From IMG/VR virus record IMGVR_UViG_2531839664_000017: a stretch of DNA of 13,451 nucleotides. One strand, given 5' to 3'. This DNA is from a virus. Lineage: Duplodnaviria; Heunggongvirae; Uroviricota; Caudoviricetes. This document shows, piece by piece, positions 3,001 to 6,000 of the stretch (positions are counted from its first letter, which is position 1; each line of letters starts with the position of its first letter). A program made the position numbers.

Positions 3001-6000
3001 TATGTTCAGGTGTTGCAGGCACAGTTGTGGAGCGTAGATGCGTTGTTGGTTTACCATGCTCTGGTACATAAAAAACGCCAGTGCCATGGTAACCTGATAT
3101 AGAAACGTTAATTCCGCGACGTTCAAACTCGGCATAGACGTGTTCTGCTAAAGACCTCTTTTGACCAAATAATGCCCTGGCCAACCAGCCGTTATTCATA
3201 TTTGCGGATTTTTCTATTTCATCAGGAGAGAAGTCTTTGTTTTTTATTATGTTGGCTGAGTTACAGGATGTTAATCTGATATCATCTATTTCATGAAGAT
3301 TATGTTGAACAATGCGGTCGACAATATCTGACGGTGATAAAAATTCATCTCCGCACTTAAGAAGAGGTAGACCAGCAGAACCATGCCCAGACAGATAAAT
3401 TTTGTTGTATTTTCCTGGTGTTAAATCATCTGGCAGGATGGTTTTCATCTCTGTCGCTGTAATACTTATAGCTGCAGCAGCAACAACATCGCTATTACTT
3501 GATTGTAGATGGCTTTTATTTGCTCCAGGATATGTAAACTCCATTTTCCTTTTATCAAAATCTTGTTTTGTAGCATCATTCAGGAATAATAAATCATACG
3601 GTTTTTTCCCCGTTGTGACTCTTGAAACATTTTGGCCAAGAATATTAAGAGTATAGTCATTATACGGATTTCATTCCTAAAAAAACAAGTAATCCTTCTT
3701 TCTCTTGCGCTTTTTCGATTGTTCTCCCTGCTAAAGTTATTGGGATGGATTGAGATTGTTTTGTCGGAACTGATACGCTGGCGCTAATAGGTAGTAGGGT
3801 TCTTATGCTAAACATACAACCTCTTTCTTAATTTTCGAACCTGTTTAGGATTCTGTGTAAATTCAAAATAAACCTGTCTGAACATTCCTAACAAACATCC
3901 ACCGGACATGACAACAAAAACCGGAGCCGGACTCCGGTTTTTGTGAAGCTGTCGGCTATTTCATTCCGCCAATATTTTCCCACCTCCCGTCAGCACGCAG
4001 AATTTGCAGCGGTTGAACCGCCCCGGTTTTCCTGGAGAGTGTTTTATCTGTGAACTCAGGCTGCCAGATCATCGTTTCTGATGGAAGCATAATAAGCTTT
4101 TTCTGCTTCTGCCGGAGGGATATGACCCAGCCTTCCCAGCAATCGTCGATTGTTATACCAGTCCACCCACGTGAGTGTGGCCAGTTCCACTTCTGCACGG
4201 TTTTTCCAGCTCTTACGGTGTATTACCTCCGCTTTGTAAAGACCATTGATGCTCTCCGCCATCGCGTTGTCATACGAGTCACCTGTACTCCCTGTTGATG
4301 CCAGCAGTTTTGCTTCTTTTAGTCGCTCCGTATAGGCCAGTGATACATACTGAGAACCTTTATCACTGTGATGGACTGTGCCGGACGGCCGACGGGCCCA
4401 CAACGCCTGCTCCAGTGCATCCAGCACGAATGTCGTTTCCATAGACGATGAGACTCGCCACCCCACGATACATCCGGCAAACACATCAATGATGAACGCC
4501 ACATAGACGAAGCCCTGCCATGTGCTGACGTAAGTAAAATCAGCCACCCACAGCTGGTCAGGACGTTCTGCCACGAACTGACGGTTTACGCGGTCGCCTG
4601 CGGAAACGGCTTTCCGGCTGACGGTAGTACGGACCTTTTTACCCCGGAGAACACCGGCAAGTCCCATAACCGCCATGAGGCGCGCCACTGTACATCTGGC
4701 CACCCTGATACCTTCGCGTAACAACTGGCGCCAGACTTTACGCACACCGTACACCTGATGATTTTCATCGTATACGCGCTGTATCTCTCTCTTCAGCCAG
4801 TCATCGCGCTGAGCACGGGCACTGCGTTTATCAGGATGATGTCGCTGTTGCTGACAGTGGTAATACGTTGACGGGGCAATATGCAGCTCACTGCATACCG
4901 GTCCGACCCCGTACTGCTCACGCAGCTTATCCAGCAGTGGCATTATTTTTTCCAGAGGCGGTCGAACTCCGCCTTCGCAAAATAAGCGGAAGCCTGGCGA
5001 AGGATATCGTTACTGCGGCGCAGTTCACGATTTTCACGTTCCAGCTCTTTCAGACGCTGACGTTCAGCGGTGGTGAGTCCACCATCACCGCCCCCGGTAT
5101 CCCGCTCATGCTGACGAACCCACACACGCAGAGTCTCTGGTGTACAGCCAATCTTTGGGGCAATGGAACAAATTGCCGCCCATTGTGAGTCATATTCGCC
5201 CTGACTTTCCAGAACCATACGAACTGCCCGTTGACGGACCTCAGGGGAAAAACGTGTATTTTTAGTCATCCTGTTTACCTCTTTCTCAGGGAGTTTAGTC
5301 TCCAGGATTCCCGGGGCGGTTCAGGTCTTACCACGCACTGTATCTGCTTTTTATCCGCATCCAGTATCACCACCTGCGTGATTACCCTGGCCTGCTCCGG
5401 GATAATGCCATTCTCATCGGACTCCAGAATGTCTGCCGGTCCCAGTCGCAGCTGTGCTGTAAGTAACTCCCCGTTTTCACGGTCATCATGCTTTCCGCAA
5501 CCGCACAGACGCTGCATAAGTTTTTTTAGTACGTTCATGTCATTCTCCTGTTCTGCCTGTATCACTGCCCACTTCATCCAGCCCCTTGACATCCTGCCAC
5601 GGCCCGTCACCAAACCTGACCTGCAAATGCTGAAAAAAACCCTGAACCCGTGTGGCATCTTTGGGGTCAAGAAAGGTCAGTCCGGTGATGAGTGCGCCAT
5701 CTGTATCCGGGAACCAGCCATGGCTGTTTGTCTCAATAATGTTTCCCGGCCCCAGACGAAAACGGATTTGTGTCTCCCCCGGGTCGCCCTTCGGTCCCTG
5801 AGGTCCGGTTGCCCCCACCGGGCCAGCCGCACCTGTTTCTCCTTTCGGTCCCTGTGGGCCCTGCCGGGCCTGCCGCACCGGTATCTCCCTTTGGACCCTG
5901 TGGACCTGCATTTCCCGTCAGACCGGTCTCTCCCCGCTCTCCCCTGTCACCTTTCGGCCCCTGCGGGCCTGCCGGACCAGCATCACCTGCCGGTCCCCGT

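Follow-up and report, generated by a model that had tools for sequence, protein, structure and literature searches.

The window, that is, the whole stretch of DNA analysed here (13,451 nucleotides), carries on its minus strand a side tail-fibre gene whose reading frame breaks inside a collagen-like repeat tract. The locus raises the question of whether the strain has lost an intact fibre gene, expresses the gene across two frames or has an intact gene that was misread in its assembly. The window corresponds to the entire contig AEZX02000005.1 of the draft assembly GCA_000194395.2 of Escherichia coli O121:H19 strain 5.0959, which was sequenced at JCVI (AEZX; PMC3359367). The contig starts within an insertion sequence (IS) and ends within a repeated tail gene, as is typical of repeat-bounded draft contigs. 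Its minus strand represents the tail end of a lambdoid prophage, with the gene order M (cut by the window end), L, K, I, J, lom and fibre gene. These are followed by a small second fibre_C gene, an IS629-type element, an espS remnant, nleG7 and IS sequence. The features are listed in Table 1.

Frame break and repaired product of the fibre gene

When the fibre gene is translated from its ATG (6854), the first 333 residues are native, and those from 251 onwards show Gly-X-Y periodicity. Past residue 333, frame 0 continues for 40 aberrant residues to a premature stop at 5733, resulting in a product of 373 residues. The +1 frame contains collagen-like repeats and a C-terminal domain and ends at the stop codon at 5540-5542. 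As written, the gene has 29 consecutive Gly-X-Y triplets in frame 0 and ten more in the +1 frame at the junction; a regular-expression count finds 37 triplets in the fibre of an intact relative. Pfam assigns phage_tail_N (E 2e-69) and Collagen to the 5' open reading frame (ORF) and Phage_fiber_C (E 3e-36) to the +1-frame ORF. A preliminary description of this DNA had reported a +1 break in the collagen-like tract, with the second frame reaching a proper stop at 5540 after a structured C-terminal domain; translation and the Pfam matches place both halves, and Phage_fiber_C, exactly there, and the coordinates are accurate.

Over the fibre region, the window differs from the closest complete genome at one position in 1,701 bases (pairwise alignment). 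The lesion is directly visible on the gene strand, where the window reads GCAGGGCCC and every relative reads GCAGGCCC, a difference of one extra G. The single additional base previously suspected in a GGG/CCC run is therefore present as an added G in the alignment with the closest genome (CCC versus CC at 5859-5861). We conclude that the frame break is a genuine property of this sequence and not a chance pattern.

Removal of one C yields, upon translation, a 437-residue protein identical to WP_032212803.1. The repaired fibre is an EPclA-type side tail fibre, consisting of an N-terminal domain, a coiled coil, 37 Gly-X-Y triplets and a C-terminal trimerization domain; its Ala/Ser-rich coil extends to about residue 250. 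It has the PfN domain, a Gly-X-Y tract of ~111 residues that is uninterrupted once the extra base is removed, and the position downstream of J and lom (M-L-K-I-J-lom-fibre) that is expected in a lambdoid tail module. The PfC domain (PF06820) is in frame in all relatives and in the +1 frame in this record, such that the product encoded by the window as written would be without nine native triplets and the whole of PfC.

Two further observations concern the immediate surroundings of the gene. A GC-rich hairpin followed by a T-run (cccgcctgttcaggcgggctttttt; 6868-6890, minus strand) lies between lom and the fibre gene, immediately before the start codon of the latter, and resembles an intrinsic terminator. 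On the opposite strand, an ORF of 466 residues (5231-6631, plus strand) that has no Pfam match is called in the public collection instead of the fibre gene. The call of this antisense ORF is an artefact that the frame break produced in the annotation.

Table 1. Features of the window (coordinates in nucleotides of the window)
Feature	Position	Strand	Basis and remarks
Left IS copy, third private indel (T4 to T3)	271..274	+	Best of 30,295 IS places 99.8%, 1,240 versus 1,238 bases
Left IS copy, fourth private indel (G3 to G2); transposase frame broken	1115..1117	+	IS-copy comparison; ORF list
IS629/IS1203-type element of the IS3 family, 1,310 bp	4014..5323	-	Terminal repeats TGAACCGCCCC at 4014, complement ending at 5323
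Small gene with second, truncated Phage_fiber_C	5275..5538	-	Pfam profile positions 1-47 of 64; WP_024174195.1 in relatives
3' part of fibre gene, +1 frame: last 10 Gly-X-Y triplets, C-terminal domain, true stop 5540-5542	5540..5858	-	Translation; Pfam Phage_fiber_C
PfC, residues 363-426 of the repaired protein; trimerization, presumed receptor-binding end	5576..5767	-	PF06820; not in the reading frame of the start codon in the window
5' part of fibre gene, 373-residue ORF (333 native and 40 out-of-frame residues)	5733..6854	-	Translation; Pfam phage_tail_N and Collagen
Collagen-like tract, residues 251-361 of the repaired protein, 37 triplets, broken by the extra base	5771..6104	-	PF01391; regular-expression count
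Run with the extra base, GGG on gene strand, CCC on plus strand; two bases in all relatives	5859..5861	-	Pairwise and nine-way alignments
PfN (prophage tail fibre N-terminal), residues 1-133	6456..6854	-	PF08400, E 2e-69; naming from PMC3368898
lom	6919-7518	-	Gene order
J	7585-10977	-	Gene order
Gene M, second private indel, one G missing (GGCGCG versus GGCGGCG); frameshifted	13346..13347	-	Alignments

Distribution of the extra base

The preliminary description had proposed comparing the gene with orthologous stf genes. In this comparison, all relatives have GG and an intact gene, and the extra base is private to the window. The relatives include eight complete O121:H19 genomes with an identity of 99.1% or more over 12.2 kb, each of which has GG and an intact fibre gene. 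A 121-base segment of the collagen-like tract, which is present in about 11 copies per O121 genome, matched 707 records representing 697 of 5,426 complete E. coli genomes, with a total of 5,802 places. The extra base was found in none of these 5,802 places, and the best match of each record, without the extra base, was always 120/121. Neither a 39-mer nor a 24-mer containing the extra base occurs in IMG/VR, the GTDB species representatives or the JGI metagenomes; the intact 38-mer has at least 120 matches in IMG/VR.

Protein-level searches were also performed. The 466-residue antisense product was used as a proxy for the frameshifted sequence, as its ORF is absent without the extra base; a look-up in 153 billion gene positions places it on this contig alone. 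An exact look-up of the truncated 373-residue product returned no record, a result that is uninformative because the public gene calls for the contig carry the antisense ORF in place of the fibre gene. The out-of-frame tail peptide has no match in a database of 5.8 billion protein clusters; this query is short and of low complexity, and the result is weak evidence, though consistent with privacy.

This distribution bears on the reading of the break as functional, either as a programmed +1 ribosomal frameshift, in which tRNA-Pro moves from CCC to CCA, or as a phase-variable fibre switch. CCC-N sites are mildly prone to +1 slippage. Judging from the local sequence, the zero-frame GGG CCC A would let the P-site tRNA-Pro shift its pairing to the +1 frame, to yield a product with the intact ...AGPQGPK... 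sequence. However, no homologue needs a shift, thousands of copies being in frame at the site, and the context GCA GGG CCC ACA GGG has no stop or hungry/rare codon and no Shine-Dalgarno-like stimulator upstream. With regard to phase variation, the run of three bases (two in relatives) is far below the length of a contingency tract (about seven or more), length polymorphism is zero in the 5,802 copies and the frameshifted 24-mer is absent from the three collections. We consider a functional break to be very improbable, and both programmed frameshifting and phase variation were rejected for want of conservation at the site, of a sufficiently long run and of stimulatory elements. We attach hardly any credence to a variant in which GGG is real in strain 5.0959 and the fibre would be made at a low level by a +1 slip of tRNA-Pro on CCC-A, as a leaky, translationally rescued gene. 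An origin of the extra base from a paralogue in the other register, by a collapsed repeat or gene conversion, was likewise rejected, as the 24-mer occurs in no copy in the collections searched.

Companion changes on the contig and the origin of the extra base

The remaining explanations were weighed on the rest of the contig. Compared with the eight O121:H19 complete genomes, window 1234-13451 has five private differences in 12.2 kb; two O121 clone-mates have zero private differences over the same stretch. Three additional one-base run-length changes are directly observed besides that in the fibre gene (Table 1). A comparison with 4,832 places in 3,541 complete genomes found no exact counterpart of the segment of gene M (minor tail protein) that has the missing G. 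The left IS copy (1-1238) shows two single-base deletions and nothing else compared with the ~20 copies per O121 genome and with 30,295 matching places, among which it has no exact match. Each of the four indels on the contig involves one base in a mononucleotide run (1-4 bases), is private, breaks an otherwise conserved ORF and is located in multi-copy sequence. In the left IS, the deletions after 271 and 1115 break the transposase frames and create a spurious ORF of 412 residues (217-1455) that runs past the IS end.

The contig has three substitutions relative to the O121 clone, all in gene J (7684, 7766 and 10699). The changes at 7684 and 7766 (Y1071S and one silent) are found together in J of some O157-type strains, suggestive of a patch derived from a paralogue or of a mixed consensus. 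The substitution at 10699 (E93D) is private, and the J protein of the window is on record on this one contig. Two of the O121 genomes (L008 and L009) contain dense blocks of substitutions in the fibre gene, lom and J (aligned to window 6253-7222 and 9127-10614), which resemble patches acquired from paralogous prophages by recombination or gene conversion.

Spontaneous mutation in E. coli produces roughly one indel per ten substitutions, as determined in mutation-accumulation work. If about one in ten mutations is an indel, the calculated probability of at least four indels among seven events is about 0.003. The ratio of four indels to three substitutions therefore fits run-length miscalls in a draft and not natural mutation. 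Of the three causes offered in the preliminary description, a sequencing or assembly indel is favoured by the private base and its three companions, an inactivating mutation is less likely, and recurrent slippage-prone variation is not supported, since none of the 5,802 copies varies.

From the assembled sequences, rather than from reads, we infer that the extra base is most likely a run-length sequencing or assembly error in the draft consensus. This reading is favoured because the base is private to one draft contig that has three more private one-base run-length changes, isolated from each other within the same 13.4 kb. The 2011-12 draft consensus of AEZX02000005.1 would have miscalled GG as GGG in a region that is present about 11 times per genome, and the fibre gene of strain 5.0959 would itself be intact and encode the same 437-residue fibre as in its clone-mates. 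Several points count against an error. The runs are short (2 to 3 bases), and errors in run length arise less often in such runs than in long homopolymers. The assembly on record is in its second version. The prophage had already degenerated, and an apparently real private change, an IS insertion into IS600, is found nearby in strain 5.0959.

The last two points also speak for a real, recent and strain-private insertion that inactivated the fibre gene of an already defective prophage, leaving a 373-residue protein that would consist of PfN, the coil and a partial collagen domain without the PfC trimerization and receptor end. The fibre module was already damaged in the O121 clone because the IS at 4014-5323 interrupts the second Phage_fiber_C gene, the 3' end of which runs into the IS inserted at 5323/5324. 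This element is flanked by a 3 bp target duplication GGT (4011-4013 and 5324-5326) and is common to the O121 complete genomes examined. Across the clone, a tail-assembly gene is a remnant or pseudogene and espS is frameshifted. In a prophage that is already degenerate, selection would therefore not remove a real neutral frameshift, and in phage lambda loss of stf function by frameshift is well tolerated and even favoured by selection (PMC2762979). On the other hand, the extra base is found in no other assembly examined, the three other private one-base run changes occur along with few substitutions in 13.4 kb of an otherwise invariant clone, and two of these companions reside in an IS copy for which 30,295 places provide no exact counterpart. 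We therefore regard a real insertion as unlikely.

The private IS insertion into IS600 is formed by the left IS, an IS3-family element (IS629/IS1203-like) that ends exactly at its terminal repeat (…CCCGGGGCGGTTCA, 1238) inside IS600 (window 1228-1240). The aligned part of IS600 is uninterrupted in the eight O121 complete genomes compared, which are without the left IS insertion, and the junction of the left IS with IS600 was found in one piece in no complete genome. It is probably a real strain-specific insertion in 5.0959.

Other assemblies of the same region provide a base rate for such frame breaks, using as a set 120 IMG/VR loci with the intact 38-mer among the matches listed. A full-length in-frame fibre gene is present in 70 of these 120 listed loci. 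Among about 83 otherwise complete copies of the fibre gene from draft genomes in the listed loci, 11-13 have one-base indels in short runs of G, C or A elsewhere in the gene, and several (L105, L127 and L055) have three or four of them in one fibre gene. Three or four one-base indels in a single fibre gene are not credible as biology and are hard to explain except technically. Other kinds of changes were also observed in this set: one locus (L069) combines two to four one-base indels in short runs with a 9 bp in-frame deletion of one block of Gly-X-Y units, and another (L049) has a 99 bp deletion inside the collagen tract. Strain RM8352 (L005; NZ_CP028110.1), a complete PacBio genome, has two private one-base deletions in the same 12 kb, at sites that align with 11123 and 12941 of the window; the annotation of gene L records one of them as a frameshift. 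Assemblies routinely show frame breaks of this kind in this fibre gene, and such indels also occur in finished assemblies.

Implications and comparison with known systems

The frame break is mainly a matter of quality control, and it should not be taken for prophage decay, phase variation or a recoding site. Its consequence in public annotation is that the split fibre gene is replaced by the spurious 466-residue antisense ORF. If the insertion were true, it would add one more private pseudogene, similar to that of lambda stf, to an already crippled EHEC prophage, with little wider consequence. The finding is ordinary: artefacts of this type are known, and so is pseudogenization of this type, the less likely alternative.

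The closest described counterpart of the repaired protein is EPclA (ECs2717-type), a collagen-like prophage tail-fibre protein of E. coli O157:H7 (Ghosh et al., 2012; PMC3368898). In EPclA, PfC and the coil are trimerization modules and the 111-residue collagen domain forms a 30 nm triple helix (PMC3368898). The repaired fibre has the same arrangement of PfN (residues 1-133), coil (to about residue 250), 111-residue Gly-X-Y tract (residues 251-361) and PfC (residues 363-426), and its gene is similarly located in a lambdoid prophage tail module. Unlike EPclA, the gene in the window is split by one extra base; otherwise it is another allele, identical to O121 WP_032212803.1.

The four isolated, private one-base run changes in multi-copy repeats resemble the homopolymer errors of drafts derived from pyrosequencing, ion-semiconductor sequencing or uncorrected long-read consensus. 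They differ from typical errors of this class in that the runs in the window are short (1-4 bases).

Laboratory lambda PaPa differs from Ur-lambda by the history of a frameshift in stf (orf401/orf314). This is also a single-base frameshift in a side tail-fibre gene downstream of J and lom, as in the window. The side tail fibre is dispensable for the viability of lambda particles, and 15 of 19 stf mutants selected in plaques are frameshifts (PMC2762979). The lambda PaPa mutation was verified experimentally and is fixed in its lineage, whereas the change in the window is confined to a single draft contig and probably does not exist in the DNA of the strain at all.
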